64,000 nt of DNA from NCBI GenBank assembly GCA_964448725.1, contig CAYVAJ010000002.1:66587-130586 (forward strand). The letters run 5' to 3'. The notes beneath the pieces were generated by a model, which did not search any database, was not told the DNA's origin, and worked only from the letters and a program-made list of their open reading frames with translations. Source of the stretch: an uncultured Gammaproteobacteria bacterium. GTDB lineage: Bacteria; Patescibacteriota; Microgenomatia; Levybacterales; GWA1-39-11. Within the stretch, counting starts at the first letter, position 1. Every line of letters starts with the position of its first letter. Made by a program: the position numbers and the translations under genes. This document shows positions 10,089 through 32,168 of the stretch, in pieces.

Positions 10089-12488
10089 ATGAATCTGTCT
10101 AATAAATCCAAAACAAAATTAATTCCTGTAATCCCAATTCGAGACGGCATTGTTTTTCCTCATACAGAAAGTATTCTAACTTTTGGTCGTCCAAAAAGTT
10201 TGGCAGCACTTGAGTCAGCATTCTCTGGTGAGCGTGTTGTCTGTTTTGTTCTACAACGTAATCCTCGTCAAAATGATCCAAATCCTGAAGACCTCTATAG
10301 TATGGGTACTGTCTCACACATTGAACGCATGATTCGTTCTGACGGGGAAGTAAATGCATTAGTCCGCGGACTTACCCGTTCAAAAATTATTTCTTATGAA
10401 GATAAAGGTAACTATTTCCTTGCAGAAATTGAAGAAATAGATGAAGATGATACTGCAAATGCTGAAATTAAAGCACTTACCAATCATTTAATTAGTGAGT
10501 TTAAAAAAGCGCTCAATTATGGCAAACAAGCAGACTTTCTGGTGTTTATGAATATTATGTCTGAGATTACTGCCGGAGAACTTGCTGATCAAATTGCCTC
10601 AACACTTGATATCAAAGGAAGTGAACGTCAGGAAATTTTAGAAACAATCGATGTAAAGAAACGGCTTGAGAAAGTATCAGAATTCCTCTCAAGAGAAGTA
10701 AAGGTGCTTGAGCTCGAGCGGAAAATTGCCTCTAAAACACAAGAACAATTTGAAAAGAATGCAAAAGAAGCGATTCTGCGAGAAAGACTTAAGACAATAG
10801 AAAAAGAGCTTGGTGAATCAGATGAGGGTGGAGAAGTTCGTGAGTTACTTGACAAAATTCGCAAAGCAGGAATGCCAAAAGATGTCGAAGAAAAAGCTCG
10901 CAAAGAACTGCGTAAATTACAACAGACAACCCCATACAATCCTGAAGCAGGATATATTCGTAATTATCTTGAATGGTTAGTCGCACTGCCATGGAGTAAA
11001 AAGACAAAAAGTACTCTTGATATGAAAAAAGCAGAAGAAGTACTGAATGAGGAACATTATGGCCTTGAAAAAGTAAAAGAGCGAATTGTTGAGTATCTCG
11101 CTGTCCATAAACTGTCTGGAAAAATGAAAGGTCCGATTATCTGTTTTGTAGGGCCGCCAGGTGTAGGTAAAACATCTATTTGTAAATCAATTGCAAAATC
11201 ACTGAATCGTAAATTTGTAAAGCTCTCGCTTGGAGGTATCAGAGATGAAGCAGAGATTCGTGGACATAGACGTACGTACGTTGGTGCATTACCAGGACGA
11301 ATTATCCAGGGTATTAAAGATGCAGGCACAAAAAATCCAGTGTTCATGCTTGATGAAATCGATAAAGTTGGCAGTGACTTTAGAGGTGATCCTACGGCAG
11401 CACTTCTTGAAGCGCTTGATCCAGAACAAAACGACAAATTTGGTGATCACTATCTAGATGTAGATTTTGATCTTTCAGATGTAATGTTTATCACCACAGC
11501 TAACATGTTGGATACTATACCACCTGCGCTTCGTGACAGACTTGAGATTATTCGGTTTGCTGGATACACAGAAGATGAGAAGTTCCACATTGCTAAAAAT
11601 TTCTTAGTTAAAAAACAGCGTGAGGCACACGGTCTGAAAGCAGAAGATGTAAAAATGACTGATGATGCACTCAGATATATCATCAGACGGTATACTCGTG
11701 AAGCAGGTGTTCGAAGTCTCGAACGTGAAATTGCAGCAGTGATGCGAAAGGTAGCAAAAGGAGTTGCTGCAGGAAAGAAAGCAAAAGTAGAAGTAACACA
11801 AAGAATTGTAACTAAATATCTGGGTCCTGCAAAATTTGCTTCAACGATTGCTGAGAAGAAAAATGAAGTGGGTATTTCAACAGGACTTGCCTATACTGAG
11901 GTTGGAGGAGATATTCTCTTTATTGAGATTGCGCTCATGCCGGGTAAAGGTAGACTTACTCTTACTGGAAAACTTGGTGATGTCATGAAAGAATCAGCAC
12001 AAGCTGCACTATCTTATATCAGGTCTCGGGCAAAGAAACTTGGACTGGCAGAAGATTTCTATGACAAAATTGATATCCATATCCATGTACCTGAGGGTGC
12101 AGTACCAAAAGATGGACCATCAGCAGGAACAGCAATTACAACTGCTATTGTCTCAGCACTCACCAAAATTCCGACTAACCATTTAGTAGGTATGACAGGT
12201 GAAGTAACTCTGCGCGGACGAGTGCTTGAGATTGGTGGAGTCAAAGAAAAGGTAATTGCAGCACATCGCGCTGGACTAAAGACAATAATCATGCCAAAAG
12301 AGAACAGAAAAGATCTTGAAGATGTACCGAAAGAAGTGATTAAGGACTTACGATTTGTATTCGTTAATCATATGGATGATGTATTAAAGGTAGCACTTAC
12401 CAAACCATTACCGGGATTTAAAGAATTAAAGGGTGAAAAGGAAATGAAAAAAAATCTGACATTACTTCGACCCACTCCAGCTGAATAG
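10089..12488 (+). CDS. lon: ATP-dependent Lon protease (endopeptidase La)
   Basis: Lon N-domain; AAA+ Walker [10 protein letters not shown]; protease Ser-Lys dyad region [10 protein letters not shown]; 799 aa. Confidence 0.95.
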
Positions 12489-12613
12489 CCTGTAATAAAC
12501 TGTTTTATTTGCATCTTTTGTAAGAAAATGCCTGAGAACATCTCGATTATTGTCTATAATGGTTCTCCAGAAAGTAAGTGAATTTTACATAATAATTTAG
12601 TACCTATAGTATA

Positions 12614-12642
12614 TTGACAGAATTAAAATTTCTGGGTATACT
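12614..12642 (+). promoter_or_regulatory. near-consensus sigma70 promoter (TTGACA-17-TATACT), here called P3
   Basis: TTGACA 12614-12619; 17-nt spacer; TATACT 12637-12642. Confidence 0.55.
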
Positions 12643-12646
12643 GAGA

Positions 12647-12703
12647 AGCAACCATATTAAGAACTGGCGAAAGTCAACTTCTTGAGACCGGTTGCTTTTT
12701 TTG
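12647..12703 (+). terminator. stem (AGCAACC/GGTTGCT) plus U7 tract; closes a roughly 55-nt transcript from P3 (candidate sRNA or attenuator)
   Basis: inverted repeat 12647-12653/12690-12696 followed by TTTTTTT at 12696-12703; internal sub-hairpins. Confidence 0.45.
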
Positions 12704-13162
12704 TACCTAAAAATCAGTCTTTTTAGACAGTTCTTTAACAAGATGTTTTATTCAGAAATTATTTTTAAGTAAAGACTGTGAAGAGAGGGCTGATTTTCTT
12801 CAGTGTTCCCTTCGCAGTCTTTGCTTACCGGCTGTGCCGGATGACGGAGGCAAAGTGGAATTGAGAGGAACAATCTTCTATTCGTAACCTTGGGACGTCA
12901 TCCCATAACAACCATTCGATTTCATTGAAAGGTACGGTCATGTTGCTCCCCGACTTTCTCCCCGACGATGTTTACGTAGACCTCATCATTGTGATGAGGT
13001 ACAACGAGATTCTTAAGGAGAAATTTCGGATGGCTGCACGCCGTGCAGTCAATAGAAAATATGAAAGTTTCGCATAGCTGACGTTTCGCTTTTCGTGAAA
13101 GGAGGCGCCTATACGCCTTTCTGTTCTTCAGTGGGGACATCGATTCATTGGAAGGGATCATC

Positions 13163-13468
13163 ATGGACACTGAAAAAAATAGTGCTTACTCCTCCTACAT
13201 GAGAAAGGAGATGGCGTGGTGGTACGAAAAGCTGTCCTCGCTTGAAGAGGAAGTTTTTCATGCACTGCTGCGCGTCTTGCAGACACCCTGCCGGGTGTTC
13301 TCAGAATGGGAAGAGGAAGCTCTTGCCCGTGAGGGGATCTGTGGACCATCTGGGCCTTGCGGATGCGGGACATACACCCGCAGAATGTTTTACCACTCGG
13401 TAGATGCCCTTCGGGCAGTCCTGCCGAGCTTCCACCGCAACAACTTCACAATCAGGTACGCCGCCTGA
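13163..13468 (+). CDS. hypothetical small protein (101 aa) in the GC-rich island
   Basis: RBS GGAAGGG 6 nt upstream of ATG 13163; Cys/Gly-rich segment EGICGPSGPCGCGTYTRR; overlapping antisense ORFs make coding status uncertain. Confidence 0.3.
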   Translation: MDTEKNSAYSSYMRKEMAWWYEKLSSLEEEVFHALLRVLQTPCRVFSEWEEEALAREGICGPSGPCGCGTYTRRMFYHSVDALRAVLPSFHRNNFTIRYAA

Positions 13469-13610
13469 TACACAACTGAATAAAATATTTAACAGCCAAT
13501 GGCTGTACATCGTGCAATAGCACGAAAATGAGCACGGGGTTATCAGGTGACAAGGTATGCTTTGCTGCATAAATGGCTTGTCTCCCGACGACTTTTACTG
13601 CTCATTATTG

Positions 13611-13641
13611 CCGGGCGGGGACACACTACTTCCCCGCTCGG
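13611..13641 (+). repeat. 11-bp-stem hairpin, copy 1 (CCGGGCGGGGA-N9-TCCCCGCTCGG)
   Basis: near-perfect inverted repeat; a second copy lies at 14292-14318. Confidence 0.7.
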
Positions 13642-13688
13642 ATACGCTCATTTCCTACAGTAGATCATTCTCATTTTTTTATTCATTA

Positions 13689-13717
13689 TTGACTCTCTTT
13701 TTGCAAGCAATTATACT
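13689..13717 (+). promoter_or_regulatory. near-consensus sigma70 promoter P1 (TTGACT-17-TATACT)
   Basis: TTGACT 13689-13694; 17-nt spacer; TATACT 13712-13717; lies within a repeat shared with 14360-14388. Confidence 0.55.
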
Positions 13718-13918
13718 GGTGAACAACCATGTAATTGGTTAAAAGCACCTTAAAGTTGAAGTGGTATTATTTCCATAAAATCCTTTAATTATATTCAGAA
13801 TTGCTCATGAGAGGAGAGTGTATAACTCTTTTGTGGTGAGCAATTCTGTTCGTTTAGAGAAAGGAGTTTATATTCGCGGTTTCTGTAGCGGTAGTGGGAT
13901 TACGAAAGGATCTCGATA

Positions 13919-14203
13919 ATGCAGGAGTCTGTTGTTGCAGACGAAGAGACTCAGGTGGGCTTAGTACTTGTCGTTCCTGCTCTGGTGTACGGACATGGTC
14001 GGCATGTAGAGTCAGTTGATGGCTTTGCCCGCCACAAAGACTGTCGTATTGTTCCTATTCCGACAGATCCGAAGAACGTGATCGTTCACTTGGGTCCTTC
14101 TTGGAGGTGTAAAACCTCTGATGGGATTACTTATATCTCTAACAACGATGGGCTCGTGTGCTACTACTGTGGGGAGTCACCTCGCGCCATCTTCTTTCTG
14201 TAG
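13919..14203 (+). CDS. hypothetical small protein (94 aa)
   Basis: AAAGGA 8 nt upstream of ATG; downstream of P1 after a roughly 200-nt hairpin-rich leader. Confidence 0.3.
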   Translation: MQESVVADEETQVGLVLVVPALVYGHGRHVESVDGFARHKDCRIVPIPTDPKNVIVHLGPSWRCKTSDGITYISNNDGLVCYYCGESPRAIFFL

Positions 14204-14291
14204 CACAAGATGAGCACCGGGTAGTCTTGGGAAGAGTAGTGCGCTGAAAGCACAATATCTCGTCTCCTGATAACTTGTACGCTCATCATAC

Positions 14292-14318
14292 CCGAGCGGG
14301 GACTCACTCCCCGCTCGG
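14292..14318 (+). repeat. 11-bp-stem hairpin, copy 2 (CCGAGCGGGGA-CTCAC-TCCCCGCTCGG)
   Basis: perfect 11-bp inverted repeat with the same 3' arm as copy 1. Confidence 0.7.
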
Positions 14319-14359
14319 TATACACATTTCAATATATTTTATAACTGCTTGCTGCGTTA

Positions 14360-14388
14360 TTGACTCTCACATATATTGTCTTTATACT
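14360..14388 (+). promoter_or_regulatory. near-consensus sigma70 promoter P2 (TTGACT-17-TATACT)
   Basis: TTGACT 14360-14365; 17-nt spacer; TATACT 14383-14388; flanking TTATTGACTCTC identical to P1. Confidence 0.55.
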
Positions 14389-14557
14389 TGTCCTCAATTG
14401 GGTCAGAATTTTAGCGTAATAAAGATTGCTTGGTTCTGATTTTATTTTAATTTGTACATTAACAGCTATTTGGAAATGTAATATTTCACAGAATCGCCGT
14501 GAGAGCAGAGTAGTAATACTCTTTTCTTCCGGCGGTTTTGTAAAGAAAGGGGGTACT

Positions 14558-14875
14558 GTGTATCGCTTTGGCATTATTGTCATGATCATGTGTCTTGTGA
14601 TTGCACCACTCATTGTGGCGCATGATGCTGTTGTCGTACTAGCTGTGTTGCTAAGCATGAACCTTCTCTGGCTTGCAGGATTTTTTCAGTCTGCAAAGCG
14701 CACTGCTTCTCGTGCACACCTTGAACAGATATACCAAACATTGGGTGTGCTTACCGGTCCTTGGTATGCAACCAAGTATACTTACGTCCAGATCAAGAGT
14801 CAGAATCATGAGGCAACAAAACCTTTGAGAAAGGAGTATGCCGTATGGCAGTCCAGAAGGTTTAGAACGGTGTAA
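14558..14875 (+). CDS. small membrane protein (about 105 aa, GTG start)
   Basis: RBS AAGGGGG 4-5 nt upstream of in-frame GTG 14558; two hydrophobic helices (FGIIVMIMCLVIAPLIV / AVVVLAVLLSMNLLWLAGFF); the track ORF starts further upstream at 14426. Confidence 0.4.
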   Translation: MYRFGIIVMIMCLVIAPLIVAHDAVVVLAVLLSMNLLWLAGFFQSAKRTASRAHLEQIYQTLGVLTGPWYATKYTYVQIKSQNHEATKPLRKEYAVWQSRRFRTV

Positions 14876-15397
14876 GCCGTTTTGTAGCTTTACTCGAATT
14901 ATTGAAGGGATAACTCATGACAAATCGGAGTAAGGGTGGATATCCAGAAAAGTCTTCTGTTCCGAATGCGCCTCGCAAACTTGTGATCGCAATTCGCGAA
15001 TACCGGAATCGAAGACAGAAGATCAATACTAACCGTAAGGATATGCGTTCAAAGAAGAATCCACTCCTTACCTAGTTCCAGATAGACACTGCGTTGGAGG
15101 ACATGGTAATCACTATGACAGCTGTACAATCGAAATCAATCGCTGAGGTTGATACGCGATCTGCAGTTTTCCTCCAACGCAGATCACATTTTTGATTTCA
15201 ACCTCTTATTTAGGTATAATTCTAGAGCCTTAAGGCGGTTTATGGTTAGTGGATTATGGTCATTAGGCAGTAAATATCTCTTTATTAATAATTCGTAAAC
15301 CATGAATCATTGACGGCCCCATCGTTTCCGATGATGGTATCATTCGGAATCCCGATGGAAACTACCATCGGGGCTAGAGGCTATATATAATACGTAT

Positions 15398-15652
15398 ATG
15401 TACTGTATGTACATTTTACAGAGAGAGGTTGATAATTCCTTTTATATAGGAAGCACGGACAATATTGATAAGAGGATTGATAAGCATAATAAAGGGTATT
15501 CAAGGTACACGAAGAGTAAAAGACCTTGGAAATTAGTGTATAACGAAATTTATAATACTCTTTCAGAGGCAAGAAAACGCGAATATTATTTAAAGTCACT
15601 TAAGAGCAGAACTGCAATAGAAAAGTTAATTAAAATTGGCCCCATCGTCTAG
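15398..15652 (+). CDS. GIY-YIG nuclease-domain protein (YhbQ/UPF0213-like)
   Basis: YILQREVDNSFYIGSTDNIDKRIDKHNKG ... YYLKSL matches the single-domain GIY-YIG family; 3' end overlaps the start of tRNA-Glu by 15 nt. Confidence 0.7.
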   Translation: MYCMYILQREVDNSFYIGSTDNIDKRIDKHNKGYSRYTKSKRPWKLVYNEIYNTLSEARKREYYLKSLKSRTAIEKLIKIGPIV

Positions 15653-15710
15653 AGGCCTAGGACATCAGGTTCTCATCCTGAAAACCGGGATTCGAATTCC
15701 CGTGGGGTCA
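15638..15710 (+). tRNA. tRNA-Glu (anticodon CUC), no encoded CCA
   Basis: hand-folded: acceptor GGCCCCA/TGGGGTC; D-stem GTCT/GGAC; anticodon stem TCAGG/CCTGA with loop TTCTCAT; T-stem CGGGA/TCCCG with loop TTCGAAT; discriminator A. Confidence 0.8.
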
Positions 15711-17160
15711 CTAAAGTTGTTTTATTGCCTGCAAAATCACCGATTAGATTGAAAGGAAGCCCTAAAGTAGCGGTTCCAAATCCTTCGTTGCTAACAGGCA
15801 TGCCACTTGGAAATAACAATGACTGGAACCTTTGTTTGTTCTCCAAATTAGACTCAAACCACAGTGATGCTACATTATCAAAGAGTGTTTCTACTAAAGA
15901 TATTAAGTGGTCTATATTTGTCTCACTCTCTCTGTAGTCTCCACGTTCAATTTCTTTTACAGTAATATTATCGTTTAATTGTTTAACCTGTGATTTATAA
16001 TCCTCATCTGAAACAATACCGTCAAGGTTTTTCTTAAGCAGTTTATCTTTCATATTTTTAAAGTGCATGATTTCTAAATCTATATTTCTAAGAGCTGTCT
16101 CTGCTTCAAGATGTTTCCTCTTCCATACATCACGTACTATTAATTGAAACAGCTTTGAGAGCTCCTGATTTGGCTGTATTGTTTTTATATACTCATAAAA
16201 TAAATTATCTAACTGCTCTTGTCTTACCCTGACAGCTCCGCATATACAATGATAGTAAGAGTATTTTAGACGTCTTCCTTTTGATTTGCTTCCTGTTAGC
16301 CTCTTCCCACAATCTGAACACGTTAGCACGCTTTTAAGTGGAAAGGTGGGATTTTTACTAAAGTGTGGTATAGCTGCTGTAACCGACTTTCCCAAACGTA
16401 TATTGTTTACTGTGTAGAATAATTCTTTACTAACTAATGGCTCGTGGGCTCCTACATGCTCTTCTCCCCACGCTTCAACTACTCCCATGTACAACTTGTT
16501 TGAAAAAATCTTTATCATTAGTTGTGGGGTTATACGTTTATTCTTCTCAGTTCTCAATCCCATCCTATTAAGTTTCTTGCTAATAGAAATGACTGAGTAT
16601 CCACCTTTGGCGTAAGTTTCAAATGCAGTCTTAATATAGGAAGCTCTAGTGTTATCAATAATTAACCCTGCAGGTGAATTTTTATAACCAATAGGAGCTT
16701 TCCAAGGCCAGTGTCCTTGTCGTGCCTTTTCTTTCATACCTTCCTTTGTCCTATCTGAACGAACATCATTGTCAAACTGTGCGATAGAAGAAAAAATGTT
16801 CTCCATTAACTTTCCCGCTGGAGTATCATCAATTTGTTCTGAAACAGACCGGAGTTTTACTCCCACTTTTAGTAATGCTGCTCTTACTGCGCTATGGTCT
16901 GCGGTATTTCTAGAGAACCTATCTAATTTATGGACTAATAAAATGTCTATCTTACCTCTATTTTCGTGACAAAATTTTAGAAGTTTTAGGAGCTGAGTTC
17001 TGTCTGCGGTTTTTGCTGACTCTCCTTGTTCTTGGAATACTTGAACAATATTCCAACCCATTCTCTCTGCGTATTCTTTACACAATTTTTCCTGGTACGT
17101 TAAGCTGTAACCCTCTATTTGTTCTTTTGTGCTGACTCTTGTGTAAAGAATGACATTCAT
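15673..17160 (-). CDS. large serine recombinase (resolvase/invertase catalytic domain, recombinase domain and zinc-ribbon)
   Basis: N-terminus MNVILYTRVSTKEQ with catalytic Ser; ...HKLDRFSRN...; C-terminal CxxC...C zinc-ribbon region; last 12 codons are antisense to the tRNA-Glu T-arm. Confidence 0.85.
   Translation of the reverse strand: MNVILYTRVSTKEQIEGYSLTYQEKLCKEYAERMGWNIVQVFQEQGESAKTADRTQLLKLLKFCHENRGKIDILLVHKLDRFSRNTADHSAVRAALLKVGVKLRSVSEQIDDTPAGKLMENIFSSIAQFDNDVRSDRTKEGMKEKARQGHWPWKAPIGYKNSPAGLIIDNTRASYIKTAFETYAKGGYSVISISKKLNRMGLRTEKNKRITPQLMIKIFSNKLYMGVVEAWGEEHVGAHEPLVSKELFYTVNNIRLGKSVTAAIPHFSKNPTFPLKSVLTCSDCGKRLTGSKSKGRRLKYSYYHCICGAVRVRQEQLDNLFYEYIKTIQPNQELSKLFQLIVRDVWKRKHLEAETALRNIDLEIMHFKNMKDKLLKKNLDGIVSDEDYKSQVKQLNDNITVKEIERGDYRESETNIDHLISLVETLFDNVASLWFESNLENKQRFQSLLFPSGMPVSNEGFGTATLGLPFNLIGDFAGNKTTLVTPREFESRFSG
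15695..15711 (+). repeat. attL-like 17-bp direct repeat (tRNA-Glu 3' end)
   Basis: exact copy of 21704-21720. Confidence 0.7.
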
Positions 17161-17169
17161 AGTATTTAC

Positions 17170-17379
17170 TTAATTCCCATTTTCGCTTTTTAGCTTCAAG
17201 GAGTCAATAACCCCACGTTGTTTTTTGGAACCGTAAGTGTCAATGTATATTTCTGCTAACACCTCCATGCTGTTAATCAGAGAGAGAAGCTCATCATCGG
17301 TAAACTTACTGGCACTCTTTCCTAATATTCTTTTAGCGGTTTTTAAGGTTACTGTTTTCATCCTGCCTATATTAGGCAT
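17170..17379 (-). CDS. hypothetical small protein (element cargo)
   Basis: ORF only. Confidence 0.35.
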   Translation of the reverse strand: MPNIGRMKTVTLKTAKRILGKSASKFTDDELLSLINSMEVLAEIYIDTYGSKKQRGVIDSLKLKSENGN

Positions 17380-17419
17380 ATAAGCTGGATATGGAGATTG
17401 TAATATTTGGGTCTAAAAA

Positions 17420-17851
17420 TTACTCAGTAAATGCCAGTTCTTTATCTTTCTCTTCCATAATTTTCAGTGCATCAGCCAGAATATCAGGCGATACATTGAA
17501 GGTGTTATTCTGTGTGGCTTTTACTAGAGGAGAAGCATCTGTGATACCATGAGAAGCCTTTAAGAGAAATGCTGCAAACCTCGCGTTATATTTGTTGCTA
17601 AGTCCCCCGGAGATGAGCAAGTGTCTTTGAGCGTCACGAAGCATCTCCATCGTCTGCATAAAATCAGAATGCTCCTTCTCCCACTCGTATAATACCCTTG
17701 TTCCTACCCCTAAATAAGACGCTAAATGCTCAATAGTGGGAAATTCATCATTTTGAAGACACTTCTTTGTGTAATGCATTACACGTTTCGGAGTCTCTTT
17801 TGTGTACTTTGTAGGTCTTCCTCTTTTGAGTGTAAATATCTGTTGCTCCAT
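17420..17851 (-). CDS. phage terminase small subunit-like HTH protein
   Basis: GRPTKYTKE...IEHLASYLGVGTRVLYEWEKEHSDF...N..F..FLLK pattern typical of TerS proteins of Firmicutes phages and PICIs. Confidence 0.6.
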   Translation of the reverse strand: MEQQIFTLKRGRPTKYTKETPKRVMHYTKKCLQNDEFPTIEHLASYLGVGTRVLYEWEKEHSDFMQTMEMLRDAQRHLLISGGLSNKYNARFAAFLLKASHGITDASPLVKATQNNTFNVSPDILADALKIMEEKDKELAFTE

Positions 17852-17902
17852 ACTAATATTATCTCACTAATGAAGCTACTTTGTAATGTGATTTCAGTCT
17901 AA

Positions 17903-18574
17903 ATGTACTATAATCCCATCAATGTGTCATATAAAGTAATTCTGGAAAATTCTATAAAAAGTATCTTTGATGACTTTGAGAAAATGGGAGGTCATATAAA
18001 AAACCCATCAATCATTGATAGATACTTAATTGCTGCAACTTATAAAGCTGCTAGACTAACTAACACTCTCATTTTGCTATGTGAGAACGGAAAATGTGAG
18101 GATGCATTAATAATTCTGCGGTCTTTAATAGAACATACTGTAAATATGCGGTGGATTACTACCAGAGATACTAAAACAAGGATAAAAATGTATGTTAATG
18201 ATATTAGCGATAAAGGATTTGGTGCTCAATGGACCGATGTAAATTTATATGACAGAATGAAACAAATTAGTTTTGAAGATAAGGACTATTTTGATTTTTG
18301 TGTAAAGCTAACCTACTCCTATGCCCATGTAAACGCATTGTCACTAAGATGGGGAGAAGTATATGATGACCCCAGGTTAAGAGACGATGATTGGCCTCCT
18401 GATGCAATCTATCAAGTTGCTGCTCAGATGACTGGACATGTAATGCTTGCTTTGAATAAAAACTACAAAGAATATTTTAAGGGTTATGATAGGCTATGGG
18501 AGAGCATTCCGGTTGATAAGGATATCAGAAAAAAATATGAGGAAGTTAAGGAGAAGTTGAAAAATGAACGATAA
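17903..18574 (+). CDS. hypothetical protein (helical; possible defence-associated partner of the downstream HNH gene)
   Basis: ORF overlaps the next gene by 11 nt (operon); no catalytic motif recognised. Confidence 0.4.
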   Translation: MYYNPINVSYKVILENSIKSIFDDFEKMGGHIKNPSIIDRYLIAATYKAARLTNTLILLCENGKCEDALIILRSLIEHTVNMRWITTRDTKTRIKMYVNDISDKGFGAQWTDVNLYDRMKQISFEDKDYFDFCVKLTYSYAHVNALSLRWGEVYDDPRLRDDDWPPDAIYQVAAQMTGHVMLALNKNYKEYFKGYDRLWESIPVDKDIRKKYEEVKEKLKNER

Positions 18575-19319
18575 ACAGAGTTGCGTATTTTGTCATAGTA
18601 CCTCTAATAAGATGTCACGTGAACATGTGTTTCCAAACTGGTTGTGCAATCTATACCCAGAAGAAACAATGATAATAAACCAATTTATTGGTAAATCTCA
18701 AAATATTTGGCCTTCAAAAATATTTCAACATAAAGCAAAAGTAGTATGTGAACCCTGTAATAATGGCTGGATGGCTGACCTGGAAGGTGAAGTTAAGCCA
18801 ATCCTTAGTAAAATGATGCGATTATCACCCTATGTTTTGAATGAAAGAGCCCAGGCTACTTTATCATTTTGGGCTCAAAAAACGCTGTTAATGCTCAATC
18901 AAGCAGTTCCTGGAGACCTCAAGATAACTTCTGACCTGTATGATGATTTATATACCAAGAAATCAGCATCCTCTAAGGTGCTTGTACAAATAGGCTGGAG
19001 AATGCTCAATAGAGGTACAAAAGATGAACCAATCGCAAGTTTTGAATTAAAACAGATACCTTCTGTAGAAGTGCCCCGAGAACTATTAGGGGCTCTTGAA
19101 AAGCAAAAAGACTCAGGAGGCTTTATATGGAAAGCTGTCATTGCGATTGGACCAGTAGTCTTTGAAATGGCTGGTCATAATATGCAGATAACTCTTACAG
19201 TAGGCACGAACAGCAAGGTCTTCATTCCAATAAGGCCTTATAGGCAAGATATAACTTGGCCGCTGGAATGGCCGATAGAAGCTGAGGGTGGGTTACCAGA
19301 GATAAAGAGACGGCAATAA
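18564..19319 (+). CDS. HNH-endonuclease-domain protein
   Basis: N-terminal CVFCHSTSNKMSREHVFPNWL ... CEPCNNGWM (C-x2-C ... EH-x2-P ... C-x2-C-N), an HNH/His-Me finger. Confidence 0.6.
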   Translation: MNDKQSCVFCHSTSNKMSREHVFPNWLCNLYPEETMIINQFIGKSQNIWPSKIFQHKAKVVCEPCNNGWMADLEGEVKPILSKMMRLSPYVLNERAQATLSFWAQKTLLMLNQAVPGDLKITSDLYDDLYTKKSASSKVLVQIGWRMLNRGTKDEPIASFELKQIPSVEVPRELLGALEKQKDSGGFIWKAVIAIGPVVFEMAGHNMQITLTVGTNSKVFIPIRPYRQDITWPLEWPIEAEGGLPEIKRRQ

Positions 19320-19404
19320 ACAATATCTATATCCTTATAAGACCATAGCTTTAGTCCACGCTGGATGCCATCAGGGGAGGTATATGGTTTATGAGTGTGT
19401 ACTC

Positions 19405-20364
19405 CTATGCCATACCCAAGTACTGCATTATTGCTGATGCAATCATTGAGCCTGCTGTATTATTTGCTACAGATATACTTCCTTTACCTATCATAATCAT
19501 GACTCTTGATATCCAACTCGTTGTAGCAGGTCCTGGTTGTTCCTCGGATTTCTCGTCCTTAGACAAAGCGTCTTCTAACTCAGTTATCAGTGCGTCTGTT
19601 ACACCCAATTCCTTAAGAGATTTTTTTAATCCATCAAAGTCCCCTGGGCGTACAACTATATTGTTCTGGGTTGTAGCACCAAAATTACCCACAGAAACGT
19701 TACCCCCGTATATTATGTTATGAACATTTTGAGTAACTTTTTTGTCAGTAGGTGGAGATACTTCAACCTCTTCTTTCCCTTTACTACCCTTAATATCTAA
19801 TTCGTCTTCTATGCTGAGAACAAATTCAAGTACCCGTGTTCTTATTGTATCCAGTATTCCTCCCAACCTAGCTTTGCTAATCACCCTCCAAGCAGAAGCG
19901 AGTACCATGCCTCCACTAAATATCTCTTTGGTTTGATAAAATGCAATAACATCTGCGGGCCAATGTGACGACAGTGTGTCTGTCTTATCTCCTTGTGAGG
20001 ATAATTCTTCCAGTTCTGCAACTGGCTCAGTCATATAGTTTGTGAATAACATTTTCCGATGCTTCTTATCTATAACTGACTGTGGTACTTGTATATTACG
20101 ATATCCACTTCCGAATGGACCTGAGAGATGGCCCATTACCTGTGCTCCAAACTCTCTATAATCAGGTAATCCATCATTAGATGTATACCCATTAAGCTCA
20201 GATTGAGACCATTTCACTAGTTCATCATTTTGCAGCAACTTTCCGAGTCTCATGCAGAGACGCAACACTTCACTCAGAGGAATGTCATGACCAGTTGAGC
20301 CATCTTTAATTTTTTTTATGAGTTCACTGACTTCACTTAAATCTACAGTTTTATTCTCTGCCAT
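19405..20364 (-). CDS. AbiTii-like abortive-infection protein
   Basis: N-terminal LSEVLRLCMRLGKLLQNDELVKWSQSELNGY matches the AbiTii N-domain signature (LRK.KVLA..L.N.E...W...ELNGY). Confidence 0.55.
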   Translation of the reverse strand: MAENKTVDLSEVSELIKKIKDGSTGHDIPLSEVLRLCMRLGKLLQNDELVKWSQSELNGYTSNDGLPDYREFGAQVMGHLSGPFGSGYRNIQVPQSVIDKKHRKMLFTNYMTEPVAELEELSSQGDKTDTLSSHWPADVIAFYQTKEIFSGGMVLASAWRVISKARLGGILDTIRTRVLEFVLSIEDELDIKGSKGKEEVEVSPPTDKKVTQNVHNIIYGGNVSVGNFGATTQNNIVVRPGDFDGLKKSLKELGVTDALITELEDALSKDEKSEEQPGPATTSWISRVMIMIGKGSISVANNTAGSMIASAIMQYLGMA

Positions 20365-20417
20365 TTGTCAGCTATTATAGCACTCCACCGGTGTTTAATG
20401 ATTACACAAAAATGAGG

Positions 20418-21386
20418 TCAATTATAGGCACTGCACTGTTGCTGGTACGCTTCATCGTTCTTAACTTCTTGTTCCATCTTATTTCTAGTTCCTGTCCATA
20501 CACATTCATTGTATTGGGTCTCCGTAAGTGAATTGGCTTCCTTTAATTGCGTACAAGCAACTATGGAGTCTTGAGTTTTTTCCTCTACTGAAAGGGTAAT
20601 CCCCAGTGCGGGGTTCAAGTCTACATCCTCCTTTAATCTAGCAAAAATTGACCTTCTTTCCTCGTCATGCAGCTGATTTAAGAAAATTGACTGTGCCGTA
20701 AAAGCATCAGCCTCCTGTCCAAAACATTCCAATTTTTCTTTAGTCTCACGTTGATATATCTCCTGTCCTACATGTGTTAGCTCATGTATTAAAATAGTAG
20801 CAATTGAGAGGTCATCGTAAGTCTTGTACTGGGGGTGCAGTATAATTTTCAATGCATCTGTTGGGGAATCCGTCATAAATCCTCCTTCTAAGTCCATTTC
20901 AGATGCCTCTTCTGAATACTGAATATCAAGACAGTTTCTGTAATCAAAAGCCCTTCCATAGTACGAGCCGGGGTTATTCTCTATATCCAACCGCTGTGAT
21001 ATCAAATCCAAGGCTCTATTAATTTCTGGCTCTAAAGCGTGTGGAGTACCTCTCAAACAGCGTGCTACTGGTGCTGTTCTCGCACTGTATTCCATATACC
21101 CAACTAACCCTGTCCCTAACAGCCAAAAAATGATTAGAAAGACTGAAACCATCCTAAATCGCTTCTTCCAAAATGTTATTACTGAAAACAAGGCTGTAAA
21201 GACTGCCCATAAGATGACAACCCTCCACATGTTTTCTCCACCAATGGCTGCCCGTTGCTCATAGAGTAACCCGTCCGCGGTTCTCATGAACGGGAACATC
21301 GCTACAAAAAATATCACAGTTACAATTCCCAGAAGAAATAGGCGGGAAAATATCCTTTTAACTGATAGGTTATATCTCTTACTCAT
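20418..21386 (-). CDS. membrane-anchored HExxH zincin-like metallopeptidase-domain protein (DUF4157-like)
   Basis: three N-terminal TM helices; ILIHELTHVGQE motif resembling the DUF4157 HELxHVxQ signature. Confidence 0.45.
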   Translation of the reverse strand: MSKRYNLSVKRIFSRLFLLGIVTVIFFVAMFPFMRTADGLLYEQRAAIGGENMWRVVILWAVFTALFSVITFWKKRFRMVSVFLIIFWLLGTGLVGYMEYSARTAPVARCLRGTPHALEPEINRALDLISQRLDIENNPGSYYGRAFDYRNCLDIQYSEEASEMDLEGGFMTDSPTDALKIILHPQYKTYDDLSIATILIHELTHVGQEIYQRETKEKLECFGQEADAFTAQSIFLNQLHDEERRSIFARLKEDVDLNPALGITLSVEEKTQDSIVACTQLKEANSLTETQYNECVWTGTRNKMEQEVKNDEAYQQQCSAYN

Positions 21387-21703
21387 CTGTTTTCAGTATA
21401 TCTTAAAGAAAGAAAAAAAGTAGCAAAAAAAGAAAGAAAATAATTTTGGTTCATAAATCTACTGGTAGTTATATTGATAGGCTGGGGTGTGGCTGGGATA
21501 TACTACCTCTCTCCACTGGTCTAATGAGGCACGAACTTGGTTCCAATGCAAAAACATTTGGGTCACATAAAAAATATCTCGCAACAGTGCGAGATTTTTT
21601 TGTGGGATTTCACCGTAGGAAATTGAATATTTGTTCGTGCCGCTACGAAGTAGCTAATACCCTTGGGGTACGACACTTCGAAGAAGTTAGTCCTCTTGTA
21701 GGA

Positions 21704-27383: not shown

Positions 27384-30300
27384 ATGGATCCAGATTCTTT
27401 AACCAGAAGTAAAAAAACTTCATCCTTTTTAAAACTTTACGGTAAGATTGCAGCATACAGCTTGGCTGTTGTGTTTGGAATCATAACTGTAGTGTATATT
27501 ATTGATTGGAACTCAGAGTCGGAAGATCCAACAACTCCTACAAAAACAAATCCAATGCCCGAAGTTTTGGCTGAAGCAGACAGTTTATTTGAGTCAGGGG
27601 GTGTAGTATTTGGTATTCCAACAAATTTTACTGCAGCAGCAACATTTGGTTCAGACATTACCGTTGCTCAAGATACTAATCTTGAAGGGGATTTGTATTA
27701 CAGAGGAGATTTAGTTGATCTTTCAATAATTGTCGATGGATTGGAAATAGACTCAGACTCGCTTTCAACCATCCTGGATGAAGGTGTTGGAATTAGTATC
27801 ACAGGTGATGAAGTACTGCAGATAAATAATACTGGTGTACTGTCATTTAATGGCCTTACCGGTGATGTTGTCTATGAGATTGAAGAACATAATATGTTTA
27901 AAAATATTCTTGTGCCTGGTAATGCCACAATTGTAGCAGATTCAACGAATGATTCGTTAACATTTATTCCTGGTGACGGAATTTCTCTTGCGACAGATGC
28001 GACTGGTAAAAGTATCACAATAACAAGCTCAAGCGCCTCTAGTGGTGTTAATACAATTACTGGCATACCAAATCAAGTTATTGTTACAAGACTTGGTCAG
28101 GATGTTATACTCTCACTCCCTCAAGATTTTCATACAGCTGCGAGTGTTACATTTTCTGAAATGACTTTGGCAGATCCAATTACTTCTGCTAATGTACTTT
28201 CATTTACTTCAAGCGGGCGTATCTCCACATTAAATAATGCTGATTTACTCCTCGGGAGTAATAGTACTGGAAATATACAATTCATATCAAAGGGAGCCAC
28301 ATCATTGTTGCTTAATGGATCAGACTTGGTTGCAAGCGGTTCGCTTACTGGAGTCACAGATTTTAGTGCCTCAGGTGAGATAGAACTTACATCACTTGCT
28401 AATGGAATTGTGCAAGCGCAAGGATATACATTAACCAGTGGACCTATCAATCTTGCAAGCAGTAACCACGTATCAGGAATTTTATCCGCAGAAAATGGCG
28501 GAACTGGTACTGATAAGACACCATTGGATGGACAAATATTAATTGGTAGCGGTCACACAAAAAGTTATGAACCGAGACATTTAAGTGTGGGTACTGGTAT
28601 TTCTGTAACAAGAAACCCCTATTCGTTAACTCTTACAAATAGCGGAGTAACAAAAATTGCTGGAGGAGTGAGGCATATTTTGGTGAATGGATCATATTCA
28701 CCAACAGGACTGACAGGTGATGTTACATTAACATTACCCCAGATACTTGATACTGTAGCCTCACCAACATTTGCAGCGTTGCGGCTCACCTCACATGAAG
28801 ATATTCTTACCTTTACTGCAGAATCAGGAGATTTAGCCTATCTCCAGATAGGTGAGCTTACACAGAATAGGAATTACACTCTCCCAGATGAATCAGGTAC
28901 TTTTTGTCTTACTTCAGGTAACTGTGTTGGAATTGGTGGAGGGCTTGTCGGAACCGGTACTGCCAACTATATTCCTAAATACTCAAATGCAAATACACTT
29001 ACGCCATCACTCATTTATGATGATGGATCAAGTGTGGGAGTTGGAACAACGCTCCCTTTGCTGGGAGTAGCACTTGATGTGAATGGTTCTCTTCGCATTG
29101 GAGTTGCAAGAGGCACATATGACATTTTGAACACTGTACCTGCACAGGGAGATCCATTGGCTTCATTATTCTGGGGAGATAGAACACTCTGTGATTCTAG
29201 TGGGAGTTGTCAGGGGACAGCAGGTGCAGGAGTTGAGAGCATGGGGACAGATGGATATATTGCTCTTTTTTCTAACAGCGGGAATACTCTCGCGAACTCT
29301 CTTATCTATGATTCAGGATCTGCTGTTGGGATTGGGACAACTACACTCACAGGATTTATTACGATTTCAGGAAGTAGTGAAAATTCAGCACTCTCCATCA
29401 ATCAGACGAACTCAGTAGGGGATATTATCAGTGCGTCAATTGAAGGGGAAGAGAAGATGATTCTAACCAGTGTCGGTGATCTGGATTTGGTGAGTGGGGT
29501 ATATAAAAATAAAGGAAATTCAGGTGCAACAGTAGGAGGATATTCTTGTGTAACAACAAGTGGTGGTATTGTTACCGGAAGCGGAGCATGTCCTGTAGAT
29601 CCATCTGCTACGTTGTGGGAATCACAAGGAAGTCTTACCTTTGCAAAAAATACGAATCATAATTTTGCACTTGGTGGTACAACCGTAAATAATGCAAAGT
29701 TCGCAGTATTAAATATAGATTCTGGTGATCCGACTATTTGGTTGAGAAGTTCTCCTACCCAAACTTTGTCAATTACCTCAAGCGGTACTTTTAAAACAAT
29801 TAACGATGCAAATATTACACTCGAATCAGGTGAAGATATTGTACTCAAACCAGGCAGTGGCGATATTGTTGTAGAAGGTAAATTAGTAACTCCAGAAAGC
29901 TCAGATTTGATAGTGGAACCTGAAGGGTCATTTCATGTTAGACCTCACGGACAGCAGGTATTGAGTGTTTCAACAGATGGAGTGGGAGTTAATACTACAA
30001 TTTCGCGTGGGGCATTTACTATAAAAGAACTGTCAAGTTTCCCAACACAAGGAGAAGGGGAGGGAACTCCTGATAATAATTTGATTTTAGATCCTGCAGA
30101 CAGTAATTTCTCATCTAATACTGGACATTGGACCTTATGGTCTGGATGGTCGATTAGTGGAGGAAGATTAACATATAGCGGAGGTATTGCTACTGCATCT
30201 TTAGAAAACCAATATATAGGCAATTATATTGAAGCCGGTAAAACCTATACAGTGAAATTTGATTTATTGGAAACAACTTCTCCAGGGGCGATTGGTATCC

Positions 30301-32168
30301 AAGTTGGGAATGCACAAAGTGGTATGATTTGGGCAGATATGCCTCCATATGATTATGGGACAAAAACATCTGTTATTACTCCCACATCGTCTGGAAATTT
30401 ACATATATATGCAAATAATGGATGGCAAGGCTCAATTACAAATATAAGAATAACTTCCCCAGGTATAGAGCCACCTCCATCTACCCCACCTTCACCAGAT
30501 CCATCAGGACCAGGTCTTGTGCTTGTTAGTAGCGATGGTGCCTTAACCCCACTTGAGATGAGAGCAGGAGGAAGCGGACTATCCAACACATTTGTAGGAT
30601 ACTCTGTAGGTGGATTAAATGAATCAGGAACACATAATGCAGGGTTTGGGGCAGAAGCGCTCTATAGTTTATCACTAGGAGATTACAACACTGCTATTGG
30701 ATCTGAGGCGTTATATAACAATCTCTCAGGTTTGGACAATGTTGCATTAGGATATAAATCAGGATACCACTTAAGTGGTGGATCTGGAAATGTATTTGTT
30801 GGCTCAAATGCAGGGCCATCAAGTTCTGCTGAATTATCTAATCAATTATATATTGCAAATGCTGCAGGAAATCCTCTTATTTGGGGAGATTTCAGTGAAA
30901 AAATGGTGGGAATAAATCTTGCAGATACTACATCTGCAAATAATACGTTAAGTGTTGCTGGTAGTTTGTGTGTAACTGCAACGGGAGTATGTGAAAATAA
31001 TTCTGATGGAACGATTTATACCACCAACACGGTAGTAACAGGGGCAGATGTTGCAGAAAATTATGTGTCTGCTCAGCAGTTACATCCTGGAGATGTCGTG
31101 AGTATGGCTAACAATGGTAATTCTCAAGCAGTAGTAAAAGCACATGCTGCATCCAATACTTTGCTTGGTGTCGTTTCAACAGCTCCTGGTCTCACACTTA
31201 ATTCTGATGCGAGAACAGATAAGGTACATAAATATATATACCCAATCGCTTTAAATGGAAGAGTTCCGACAAACGTAAGTACAGAAAATGGGTTAATTTC
31301 AGTAGGTGACCCGCTTACCGTTGGCTCTACTCCAGGAGTAGCAGTAAAAGCAATAAACTCGGGATATATTATTGGACGTGCACTTGAATCATATTCTGGA
31401 TCAGGGACTGGTACGATAATAGTATATGCTAATGCAGGTTGGTACGCACCGTTGATTGTAAATGGTGATGGAAATATCGTCTCTGATTCTGAACTTGTGA
31501 TGAATACAAATAATGAGTTTTCTCTATTATCTATAAAGGGTCTACCTTCAACAGATGATACATATGAGGAATCACTACAGACTTTGGATGCAAAGATTTC
31601 AGGACTTGAAAAAAAAATCCAAGAGCTTGAAAAAAGTCTGAATCTAATCGAAGAGATTAAAAATTCTGATACAATGCCTCGATCTAAAGAAAGCAGTGAA
31701 TTATTGGATGGATTAGGTGAAATTTCTCTAGAATCTGCTTCTATTGCAGGTTCGTTAAGAGTAGAAGCACTGTATCTTGATGGAAATGGGAGTATTAGTA
31801 CACAAGATACTCCGCTTCGGCTTCAAGCAAATAGTACTCACAATATTGTGATGTTTGATGGAAGTATCATATTTGCTGCAAACGGTGATATTTCAACTTC
31901 AGGTACAGTCAAAGCAAAAAAAATTGACATTGATACAAGTGATGAAGAAGCAGCTTCAATCGGAGTTGGTACAATAAAAGAAGGTGAAAAATCAGTTACC
32001 GTCAACACAAAAGCAGTGACTGAAAAATCAAATATATTTATTACACCAAAGACGTTATTTCCCGGGATGATCGCGGTAACAGAACAGACAGAGAATGAGT
32101 CATTTAAAGTTGAAATAGAAAAAGATGCGACAAAAGATATTCTGTTTAACTGGTGGATAGTAAATTAA
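27384..32168 (+). CDS. giant N-terminally membrane-anchored surface fibre protein (1594 aa) with tail-fibre-like repeats
   Basis: single N-terminal TM (AAYSLAVVFGIITVVYII); long Thr/Ser/Gly/Asn-rich beta-type repeats; Pro-rich linker PPPSTPPSPDPSGPG; NTAIG/NVALG-type tail-fibre repeats; coiled-coil segment; C-terminal domain paralogous to the N-domain of the next gene. Confidence 0.7.
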   Translation: MDPDSLTRSKKTSSFLKLYGKIAAYSLAVVFGIITVVYIIDWNSESEDPTTPTKTNPMPEVLAEADSLFESGGVVFGIPTNFTAAATFGSDITVAQDTNLEGDLYYRGDLVDLSIIVDGLEIDSDSLSTILDEGVGISITGDEVLQINNTGVLSFNGLTGDVVYEIEEHNMFKNILVPGNATIVADSTNDSLTFIPGDGISLATDATGKSITITSSSASSGVNTITGIPNQVIVTRLGQDVILSLPQDFHTAASVTFSEMTLADPITSANVLSFTSSGRISTLNNADLLLGSNSTGNIQFISKGATSLLLNGSDLVASGSLTGVTDFSASGEIELTSLANGIVQAQGYTLTSGPINLASSNHVSGILSAENGGTGTDKTPLDGQILIGSGHTKSYEPRHLSVGTGISVTRNPYSLTLTNSGVTKIAGGVRHILVNGSYSPTGLTGDVTLTLPQILDTVASPTFAALRLTSHEDILTFTAESGDLAYLQIGELTQNRNYTLPDESGTFCLTSGNCVGIGGGLVGTGTANYIPKYSNANTLTPSLIYDDGSSVGVGTTLPLLGVALDVNGSLRIGVARGTYDILNTVPAQGDPLASLFWGDRTLCDSSGSCQGTAGAGVESMGTDGYIALFSNSGNTLANSLIYDSGSAVGIGTTTLTGFITISGSSENSALSINQTNSVGDIISASIEGEEKMILTSVGDLDLVSGVYKNKGNSGATVGGYSCVTTSGGIVTGSGACPVDPSATLWESQGSLTFAKNTNHNFALGGTTVNNAKFAVLNIDSGDPTIWLRSSPTQTLSITSSGTFKTINDANITLESGEDIVLKPGSGDIVVEGKLVTPESSDLIVEPEGSFHVRPHGQQVLSVSTDGVGVNTTISRGAFTIKELSSFPTQGEGEGTPDNNLILDPADSNFSSNTGHWTLWSGWSISGGRLTYSGGIATASLENQYIGNYIEAGKTYTVKFDLLETTSPGAIGIQVGNAQSGMIWADMPPYDYGTKTSVITPTSSGNLHIYANNGWQGSITNIRITSPGIEPPPSTPPSPDPSGPGLVLVSSDGALTPLEMRAGGSGLSNTFVGYSVGGLNESGTHNAGFGAEALYSLSLGDYNTAIGSEALYNNLSGLDNVALGYKSGYHLSGGSGNVFVGSNAGPSSSAELSNQLYIANAAGNPLIWGDFSEKMVGINLADTTSANNTLSVAGSLCVTATGVCENNSDGTIYTTNTVVTGADVAENYVSAQQLHPGDVVSMANNGNSQAVVKAHAASNTLLGVVSTAPGLTLNSDARTDKVHKYIYPIALNGRVPTNVSTENGLISVGDPLTVGSTPGVAVKAINSGYIIGRALESYSGSGTGTIIVYANAGWYAPLIVNGDGNIVSDSELVMNTNNEFSLLSIKGLPSTDDTYEESLQTLDAKISGLEKKIQELEKSLNLIEEIKNSDTMPRSKESSELLDGLGEISLESASIAGSLRVEALYLDGNGSISTQDTPLRLQANSTHNIVMFDGSIIFAANGDISTSGTVKAKKIDIDTSDEEAASIGVGTIKEGEKSVTVNTKAVTEKSNIFITPKTLFPGMIAVTEQTENESFKVEIEKDATKDILFNWWIVN

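Follow-up and report, generated by a model that had tools for sequence, protein, structure and literature searches.

A duplicated hairpin, promoter and leader module in an orphan-gene islet of a Levybacterales genome

What kind of element is an intergenic sequence that stands twice, with its parts in the same order, before two small genes that are unrelated to each other? The question is raised by a stretch of 64,000 nucleotides (hereafter the window; contig CAYVAJ010000002.1 of assembly GCA_964448725.1), which is assigned to the Levybacterales of the Microgenomatia. Between the lon gene and a tRNA-Glu gene, the window contains an islet of small open reading frames (ORFs), and two intergenic regions of this islet are copies of one module composed of two hairpins (H1 and H2), a promoter (P1 or P2), and a leader ending in a third hairpin (H3). 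A previous reading of the letters without database searches (the sequence-only reading) had noticed H2 and the promoter and had likened the arrangement to a cassette array in which each small gene brings its own promoter. The analysis presented here indicates a real, conserved, and structured control module that is duplicated inside an orphan-gene islet and is known from two species only.

The repeated module and its conservation

The islet (12490-15400) comprises 2.9 kb without a long ORF and has a G+C content of 45-52% as compared with 35-40% around it. It is flanked on the left by lon (10089-12488) and on the right by a gene for an 84-aa GIY-YIG protein that abuts tRNA-Glu. Its five small ORFs lie on the + strand, each with a Shine-Dalgarno site, and none of them belongs to a Pfam or PHROG family. 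The two module copies (13518-13866 and 14201-14553) are about 350 nt each and fill the whole intergenic region from the stop codon of the upstream ORF (TAGCAC..ATGAGCAC, at 13518 and 14201) to the Shine-Dalgarno site that precedes the following ORF. The order of parts on the + strand is the same in both: H1, H2, promoter, leader ending in H3, and Shine-Dalgarno block. Copy 1 and copy 2 align over 181 nt with 68% identity (E = 3e-15). The ORFs located 3' of them (ORF C and ORF D) are unrelated to each other, and the repeat is confined to the intergenic region. The pattern GCGGGGA-N(3-12)-TCCCCGC occurs twice in the window against zero occurrences expected from shuffles, and TTATTGACTCTC occurs exactly twice against 0.46 expected even when one mismatch is allowed. 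The two modules are true paralogues, in which conservation is highest in the promoter blocks. Thus, the duplication noticed by the sequence-only reading is real, although the repeated unit is larger (about 350 nt) than it had described; H1, the terminator-like H3, and the precedent of the phage cassettes discussed below had escaped it. A coding origin of the module was rejected since the copies share no reading frame and differ in loop length by numbers of nucleotides that are not divisible by three.

Two sets of related loci were informative. L122/L123 represent a close strain that is 98.7% identical, and L129-L132 represent a second Microgenomates species whose GIY-YIG protein is 80% identical. 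The orthologous islet is present at the same lon/tRNA-Glu place in the second species. Its layout in L129 consists of the lon end (found by direct reading), the promoter P0 with its hairpin and U-tract, different small ORFs, one module, a homologue of ORF D, a hairpin with a U8 tract, the promoter P3, a conserved leader element, the GIY-YIG gene, and tRNA-Glu. The module of L129 (1579-1758) was detected with nhmmer at E = 2.9e-8, using a profile made from the two window copies only, and with cmsearch at E = 9e-19, which indicates that the module is not unique to the window. The homologue of ORF D (L129 1849-2181) occupies the same islet position and retains about 25% amino acid identity over its full length (E = 3e-6). 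Since the module is still found by a DNA profile while the adjacent ORF D has fallen to this identity, the non-coding module outlasts the DNA-level detectability of the adjacent coding sequence. The tail of ORF D aligns with its L129 orthologue, and the idea that this tail is a fusion with the ORF of another cassette was therefore discarded. Neither ORF B nor ORF C has an equivalent in L129, and three of the L129 ORFs are missing from the window. At eight further loci, from six other relatives, there is no islet, and a glycosyltransferase gene or other genes adjoin the GIY-YIG gene.

The sequence-only reading had proposed a search of the genome and of metagenomes for further copies. The second species supplied one; none was found elsewhere in the 64 kb window by sensitive blastn and nhmmer searches, and a metagenome scan returned one chance match, inside a contig of 67% G+C. 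With blastn, neither the phage nor the plasmid collection yielded a match to the islet. Pattern scans of viral contigs for the hairpin plus promoter, the leader hairpin, the promoter, and the H1/H2 junction gave chance matches only, as judged by their flanks and by nhmmer. When the bare hairpin pattern was sought in a genome collection, chance GC hairpins of high-GC genomes were returned, with no matching flanks among the matches listed. This distribution bears on the possibility that the module is a miniature transposable element of the Correia or MITE (miniature inverted-repeat transposable element) type with an outward-facing promoter. In favor of it, Correia elements of Neisseria form long hairpins when transcribed and can supply promoters and RNase III sites. 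However, neither the window nor 129 kb of related loci contains dispersed copies, there are no terminal inverted repeats accompanied by target duplications, and the copy of the second species is at the orthologous position, not at a new one. The lack of dispersed copies in particular argues against a MITE, and we give this explanation hardly any credence.

Hairpins, promoter, and leader

The sequence-only reading had reported two hairpins with 11-bp stems and identical 3' arms, and the sequence bears out their positions, stem lengths, and arms (H2 in Table 1). H2 begins 4 nt past H1, a long imperfect hairpin whose 3' (closing) strand is the upstream GCTCAT motif. CGCTCAT motifs had been described as flanking both H2 copies; the upstream GCTCAT is indeed present in both, as part of H1, whereas the downstream CGCTCAT is found in copy 1 only. 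The corresponding end of H1 in L129 is GTGA/TCAC. The fold z of H1 plus H2 is -4.8 for copy 1, -6.0 for copy 2, and -5.9 for the L129 copy, and the same architecture was obtained when each of the three copies was folded independently. The apical helix of H1 differs in sequence and keeps its pairing (AUGC/GCAU, GUGC/GCAC, and UUCCACG/CGUGGGA), and the pair at position 4 of the H2 stem is different in each copy (G.U, A-U, and G-C). The only substitution between the strains within H1 (13568) converts a G-C pair to G.U. On the model-fitted alignment, 83% of the cells are paired as compared with 38-51% with slid partners, and five pairs are changed on both sides. With three independent sequences, the covariation data are supportive, not decisive.

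The GGGU/ACUU helix of H1 contains two consecutive G.U pairs in every copy. Since G.U pairs are A.C mismatches on the other strand, the fold is a feature of the + strand RNA and not a palindromic DNA site for a protein. A palindromic operator was ruled out by these G.U pairs, by the loop length of H2 (9, 5, and 4 nt in the three copies), and by the varying distance from H2 to the -35 box (44, 38, and 31 nt for copy 1, copy 2, and L129). The gap of about 45 nt between hairpin and promoter given by the sequence-only reading holds for copy 1, whereas it is 38 nt in copy 2.

H2 is followed by AUACGCUCAU, UAUACACAUU, and CAAGCAUAAA in the three copies, none of which is a U-tract, and H2 on the + strand was absent from the lists of the terminator scan. 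The observation of the sequence-only reading that H2 lacks a U-tract therefore holds in all three copies. Canonical hairpin plus U-tract terminators are present elsewhere in the islets, at 12652-12712 after P0 and at L129 2396-2490 after the position of ORF E. Because H2 has no U-tract in any copy while the same islets contain true U-tract terminators, an efficient classical terminator role of H2 is unlikely, and the preference of the sequence-only reading for a processing, stability, or binding role is reasonable although unproven. More plausibly, H2 would act as a pause site or roadblock, as an exonuclease block, or, together with the long duplex of H1, as a double-strand-specific processing site. 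On the minus strand of L129, H2 (1667-1694) is followed by T7 and scores as a canonical terminator for leftward transcription, a property of the second species only. A minus-strand promoter-like site lies just to the right of H2 in L129 (1778-1749).

The promoter parts of the module agree with the previous description of an identical -35 region, a 17-nt spacer, and a TATACT -10 box. Both P1 and P2 read TTGACT-17-TATACT with an AT-rich upstream sequence, and 10 of the 12 consensus positions are matched in all three copies. The ATTGACTCTC and TTATACT blocks are invariant in the three copies, whereas none of the 13 intervening positions is common to all. The + strand of the 2.9-kb islet contains five promoter-like sites with at least 10 of 12 consensus positions, as compared with ten such sites on both strands together in a 20-kb stretch of host sequence, which is no more than in its shuffles. 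By these sequence criteria, the promoter looks selected.

The leader extends for about 130-150 nt to the Shine-Dalgarno site, and its last third is H3 (53-54 nt). The structured leaders and the small ORFs with their Shine-Dalgarno sites were as previously described, the fold z of the leaders against shuffled sequence being -5.0 in copy 1 and -4.4 in copy 2. H3 forms a family of its own with compensatory changes; its full copies number three, and the third (L129 858-900, z = -8.5) is not downstream of a module promoter; the leader of the L129 module itself contains a shortened form of H3 with the same CUGUUCGUU tail as copy 1. The outer stems of H3 covary (UUGCUCA/UGAGCAA, UCGCCG/CGGCGG, and CUGCCGG/CCGGCGG) around a conserved inner core (GAGU...ACUC). 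The 5' arm is purine-rich and resembles a Shine-Dalgarno sequence, the 3' arm is pyrimidine-rich, and the tails are only partly U-rich. From these features, H3 looks like a leader terminator or attenuator, or like a translational gate. After the Shine-Dalgarno block of copy 1, a possible frame of 15 codons (13872-13921) that starts with ATT terminates in TAATG and overlaps the ATG of ORF C, a hint of translational coupling.

The conserved basal helices of H1 and H2, with their tandem G.U pairs and conserved unpaired bases, may also be read as those of functional RNAs. H1 and H2, and perhaps the leader from the promoter to H3, would then be a small RNA derived from a 3' untranslated region or from a short leader, an RNA bound by a protein, or an antitoxin RNA directed against the small membrane protein encoded by ORF D. 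Transcripts from P1 or P2 to H3 would be discrete, about 140-150 nt in length, and would end in a terminator-like hairpin, and P0 directly precedes a hairpin with U7. Against this, only tRNAs of the window matched Rfam at gathering thresholds, and relaxing to E values up to 10 added only chance microRNA and snoRNA matches. Moreover, the 5' part of the leader is not conserved between copies, ORF D exceeds typical type I toxins in size, and no conserved antisense promoter was found. We therefore regard a functional RNA as improbable, and return to H1, H2, and H3 as parts of a control cassette.

Table 1. Coordinates of the module parts and of other features of the islet (window positions)
Feature	Coordinates	Strand	Description
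H1, copy 1	13527..13606	+	Imperfect hairpin of about 80 nt; AUGAGCA/UGCUCAU closing; tandem G.U in GGGU/ACUU helix; minimum free energy folds
H1, copy 2	14209..14287	+	AUGAGC/GCUCAU closing; minimum free energy folds
H2, copy 1	13611..13641	+	CCGGGCGGGGA-N9-TCCCCGCTCGG; 11-bp GC stem with one G.U (G.T) pair; 9-nt loop
H2, copy 2	14292..14318	+	CCGAGCGGGGA-N5-TCCCCGCTCGG; 11-bp GC stem; 5-nt loop
P1	13686..13717	+	TTATTGACTCTC-N13-TTATACT; -35 at 13689-13694, 17-nt spacer, -10 at 13712-13717; putative start ~13724
P2	14357..14388	+	-35 at 14360-14365, -10 at 14383-14388; putative start ~14395
H3, copy 1	13796..13848	+	53-nt leader hairpin; U-rich tail UUCGUUU; just 5' of Shine-Dalgarno
H3, copy 2	14488..14541	+	Leader hairpin; 3' end GGUUUUGU
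Shine-Dalgarno block, copy 1	13856..13866	+	AGAGAAAGGAG (also AGAAAGGAG); ends repeat; no canonical start codon after block
Shine-Dalgarno site of ORF D, copy 2	14544..14553	+	AGAAAGGGGG
ORF C	13919..14203	+	94 aa; Cys-rich orphan; own second Shine-Dalgarno site at 13904-13912
ORF D	14558..14875	+	105 aa; GTG start; two hydrophobic helices
Direct repeats bounding 309-nt deletion	14489-14503; 14801-14812	+	CAGAATCGCCGTGAG (5' arm of H3); CAGAATCATGAG (in ORF D); strain comparison
P0, islet left edge	12614..12712	+	TTGACA-17-TATACT (11/12), then within few bases hairpin AGCAACC...GGTTGCT and T7
Unit after ORF E	15089..15220	+	Long hairpin (13-bp perfect arms), U-rich tail, then P3 (TTGATT-17-TATAAT); analogous, non-homologous to module

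Gene turnover, strain breakpoints, and the surroundings of the islet

Comparison with the close strain revealed where the islet varies. L122/L123 lack window positions 14497-14805 (309 nt), which contain the 3' half of H3 together with the greater part of ORF D, and the direct repeats at this deletion share the pattern CAGAATC..TGAG. Identity to L122 is 98.4% over 14204-14387 and drops to 78% from the last base of the P2 -10 box (14388) to the deletion (14496). There are no differences to L122 in the 1058 nt of 12510-13567, as compared with seven differences in lon, all of them synonymous; at the lon rate, an islet segment without differences has P ~0.001. These contrasting identities indicate that the islet is a mosaic of segments with different histories, and it seems that strains have recently exchanged parts of it. 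The breakpoints between the strains fall at module motifs, which on sequence comparison points to recombination there.

The simplest explanation of the repeat would be an ordinary local duplication or gene conversion of an intergenic terminator-like hairpin with a promoter, involving neither shuffling nor a special RNA role, in which the hairpins are generic stabilizers of 3' ends. There are just two copies and they are adjacent, the H2 sequence is a generic GC hairpin with chance matches in more than 100 high-GC genomes among the matches listed, and the statistical covariation is weak. Such a duplication does not account well for the maintenance of the module at the orthologous site while the neighboring protein drifted to 25% identity, for the complex folds of H1 and H3 that are kept despite sequence change, or for the coincidence of strain breakpoints with module motifs. 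It is considered unlikely.

In a second alternative, the hairpins would be DNA recombination sites of a site-specific cassette system, either attC-like as in integrons, dif-like, or targets of the neighboring serine recombinase. The imperfect palindromes at gene borders, the serine integrase 1.3 kb away, and the gene content that varies between strains and species would all suit such sites. However, the folds depend on G.U pairs, which mispair on the other strand, and neither loop length nor promoter distance is constant. RYYYAAC/GTTRRRY core sites were absent from the H1 ends on direct reading, and no tyrosine recombinase was present among the annotated ORFs (all of at least 150 aa, from position 1 to ~33 kb). 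The second species has the module without a recombinase in the 8 kb after it, and the deletion ends within H3 and within ORF D, not at H1/H2 or at the module borders. A site-specific system is accordingly very improbable. The cassette array proposed by the sequence-only reading is therefore upheld in one sense: each small gene has the look of a self-contained unit, and the genes around the modules are subject to turnover. It is not upheld in the other, since nothing points to a site-specific cassette system; no recombinase stands beside the module in both species, no attC-type core sites were found, and the indel lies off the module borders.

As for the small ORFs themselves, searches of protein collections holding billions of proteins returned only strain variants of ORFs B, C, and D. 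For ORF C, the sole other match in 5.8 billion clusters is a strain variant of 97% identity, and its AlphaFold model (pLDDT 41) is unusable. Four weak matches of ORF B were rejected as relatives, being unrelated repetitive proteins.

Two other units of the islet combine a promoter and a hairpin. The P0 region at the left edge is 70% conserved at L129 124-234, and by direct reading the inner stem of its hairpin (L129 137-222) differs in sequence between the two species. The P0 unit is either a small RNA of about 60 nt, an attenuator, or the lon terminator preceded by an embedded promoter. The unit after ORF E, which includes P3, is orthologous to L129 2396-2521, where a T8 tract is found.

The genes to the left of the islet are ordinary host genes, and the homologues of the GIY-YIG protein are attributed to Levybacteria, Daviesbacteria, and other Microgenomates and Patescibacteria in the sources that name them, which places the host in the candidate phyla radiation. 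To the right of tRNA-Glu, an integrated element (15673-21400) encodes a large serine integrase, a small-terminase-like protein, a DUF5677 protein, an HNH protein, and AbiTii, and the 3' end of the integrase gene overlaps tRNA-Glu. Since a serine recombinase also directly follows the GIY-YIG gene and the tRNA in the relative L134, this tRNA looks like an integration hot spot. The islet is not inside this integrated element. Upstream of the GIY-YIG gene (15313-15380) is a copy of the 5' part of the neighboring tRNA-Glu (15638-), divided by an insert into GGCCCCATCGT and GGGGCTAGAGGCT, which are about 48 nt apart. The split copy is also found at L129 2649-2730 and in L132 and L133, with about 85% conservation from one of the two species to the other. 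It may represent either a structured leader or a target duplication that a mobile GIY-YIG gene left behind. Farther to the right (27384-32168), an ORF of 1594 aa has as its sole annotation a weak C-terminal match to the C-terminal domain of the K1 capsule lyase.

A composite cassette resembling those of T4-type phages

The closest known counterparts of the module are the promoter-early stem-loop (PeSL) cassettes of T4-type phages, which consist of a strong sigma-70-like promoter with an AT-rich upstream region and a stable stem-loop, often GGGG...CCCC (polyG/polyC), that is most commonly located between the promoter boxes or over the -10 box (Arbiol et al. 2010, PMC2839356; Comeau et al. 2014, PMC4122927). 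PeSLs extend from the upstream stop codon to the downstream Shine-Dalgarno sequence and are concentrated around orphan genes in hyperplastic regions; in experiments they showed both terminator and promoter activity, and they mediate indels, replacements, and mini-circles (PMC2839356, PMC4122927). In the literature searched, they are mentioned for phages only. The module resembles them in its near-consensus sigma-70-type promoter with AT-rich upstream sequence and in its span from stop codon to Shine-Dalgarno site between small orphan genes of a variable region. Its GC stem-loop (GCGGGGA...TCCCCGC) may correspond to that of PeSLs, and the breakpoints inside the motif between close relatives, in the present case one strain pair with one breakpoint repeat in H3, may be comparable as well. 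The module differs in that the stem-loop lies 31-44 nt upstream of the -35 box, and that the long hairpin H1 and the conserved leader hairpin H3 are added. Moreover, it is located among host genes in the chromosome of a candidate-phyla-radiation bacterium, not in a T4-type phage, and none of the viral contigs scanned carries it. There is no sequence homology, and the activities of PeSLs are experimental whereas the module is known from sequence alone. By this analogy, the module is best described as a cellular variant of the T4-type composite stem-loop/promoter cassette with two added RNA hairpins.

Other known systems share single features with the islet. With its small accessory genes, each with its own promoter and 3' hairpin, and its G+C content above that of its surroundings (45-52% versus 35-40%), the islet resembles the morons of phages, which Juhala and colleagues reportedly described in 2000 as autonomous promoter-gene-terminator units within prophage genomes. 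Morons, however, have no repeated conserved control module and are defined in prophages, whereas the islet is outside the neighboring integrated element. Integron cassettes are normally promoterless and need the tyrosine recombinase IntI and conserved core sites. The module shares with them an imperfect palindrome after each small unrelated ORF in an array; it differs in having promoters and in lacking core sites, and no IntI was present among the annotated ORFs. H2 is like an intrinsic terminator in being a strong GC hairpin at a gene end, but has no U-tract in any copy. H3 with its U-rich tail lies between promoter and Shine-Dalgarno site as an attenuator does, but no conserved sensor or antiterminator sequence is found upstream of it.

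Taken together, we judge it somewhat more probable than an even chance that the module is a composite, PeSL-like intergenic control cassette, consisting of an RNA-level insulator, a restart promoter, and a leader gate, in an orphan-gene islet with fast turnover. H1 and H2 would form in the 3' untranslated RNA of the upstream gene and, because of this location, would act on the 3' end of that transcript. They would make or protect this end, either by pausing or termination or by endonucleolytic processing and protection from exonucleases, and would thereby insulate the upstream unit. The near-consensus promoter would then restart transcription, and H3, located in the new leader directly before the Shine-Dalgarno site, would gate the transcription or the translation that reaches the small gene. 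Since the same cassette stands beside unrelated genes, its conserved patches may also serve as homology for recombination that adds, removes, or swaps small genes. The retention of the module while neighboring genes differ, and the strain breakpoints at module motifs, fit such a role.

Several points weigh against this interpretation. PeSLs are compact and occur in many copies per phage genome, with the stem-loop usually inside or on the promoter, whereas the module is about 350 nt long and is present in two copies. Formal covariation is weak: the observed count of doubly changed pairs was reached in 133 of 500 shuffles, the alignment was fitted to a structure that had itself been taken from copy 1, and the independent copies of the module number only three. 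The absence of a U-tract makes termination at H2 doubtful, and the promoters, 3' ends, and processing sites are predictions. The role in recombination depends on a single strain comparison, with one species pair for the difference in gene content, and the deletion could be simply microhomology-mediated and unrelated to the function of the module.

A bolder form of the cassette reading is that H1/H2, the promoter, and H3 constitute an undescribed cellular counterpart of PeSLs, a mobile regulatory cassette that drives, gates, and shuffles orphan small genes in candidate-phyla-radiation genomes. In the left part of the islet, each promoter that was examined (P0, P1, and P2) has a terminator-like hairpin before the first ORF. 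From this, the islet may stay silent until an antitermination signal arrives, perhaps from an infecting phage. We hold this bolder form to be speculative and rather unlikely.

The practical reach of the finding is limited since only two species are known to carry the motif and its function is putative. If the interpretation is correct, the islet would be a clear cellular example of a control cassette that outlives its genes. To our knowledge, very little regulatory RNA has been described for the candidate-phyla-radiation lineage, and two candidate structured RNA motifs (H1 plus H2, and H3) would be added. The cassette would also represent a route by which orphan small genes could be taken up, expressed, and lost again in the tiny genomes of this lineage; such a mechanism has hitherto been described in large phages only.

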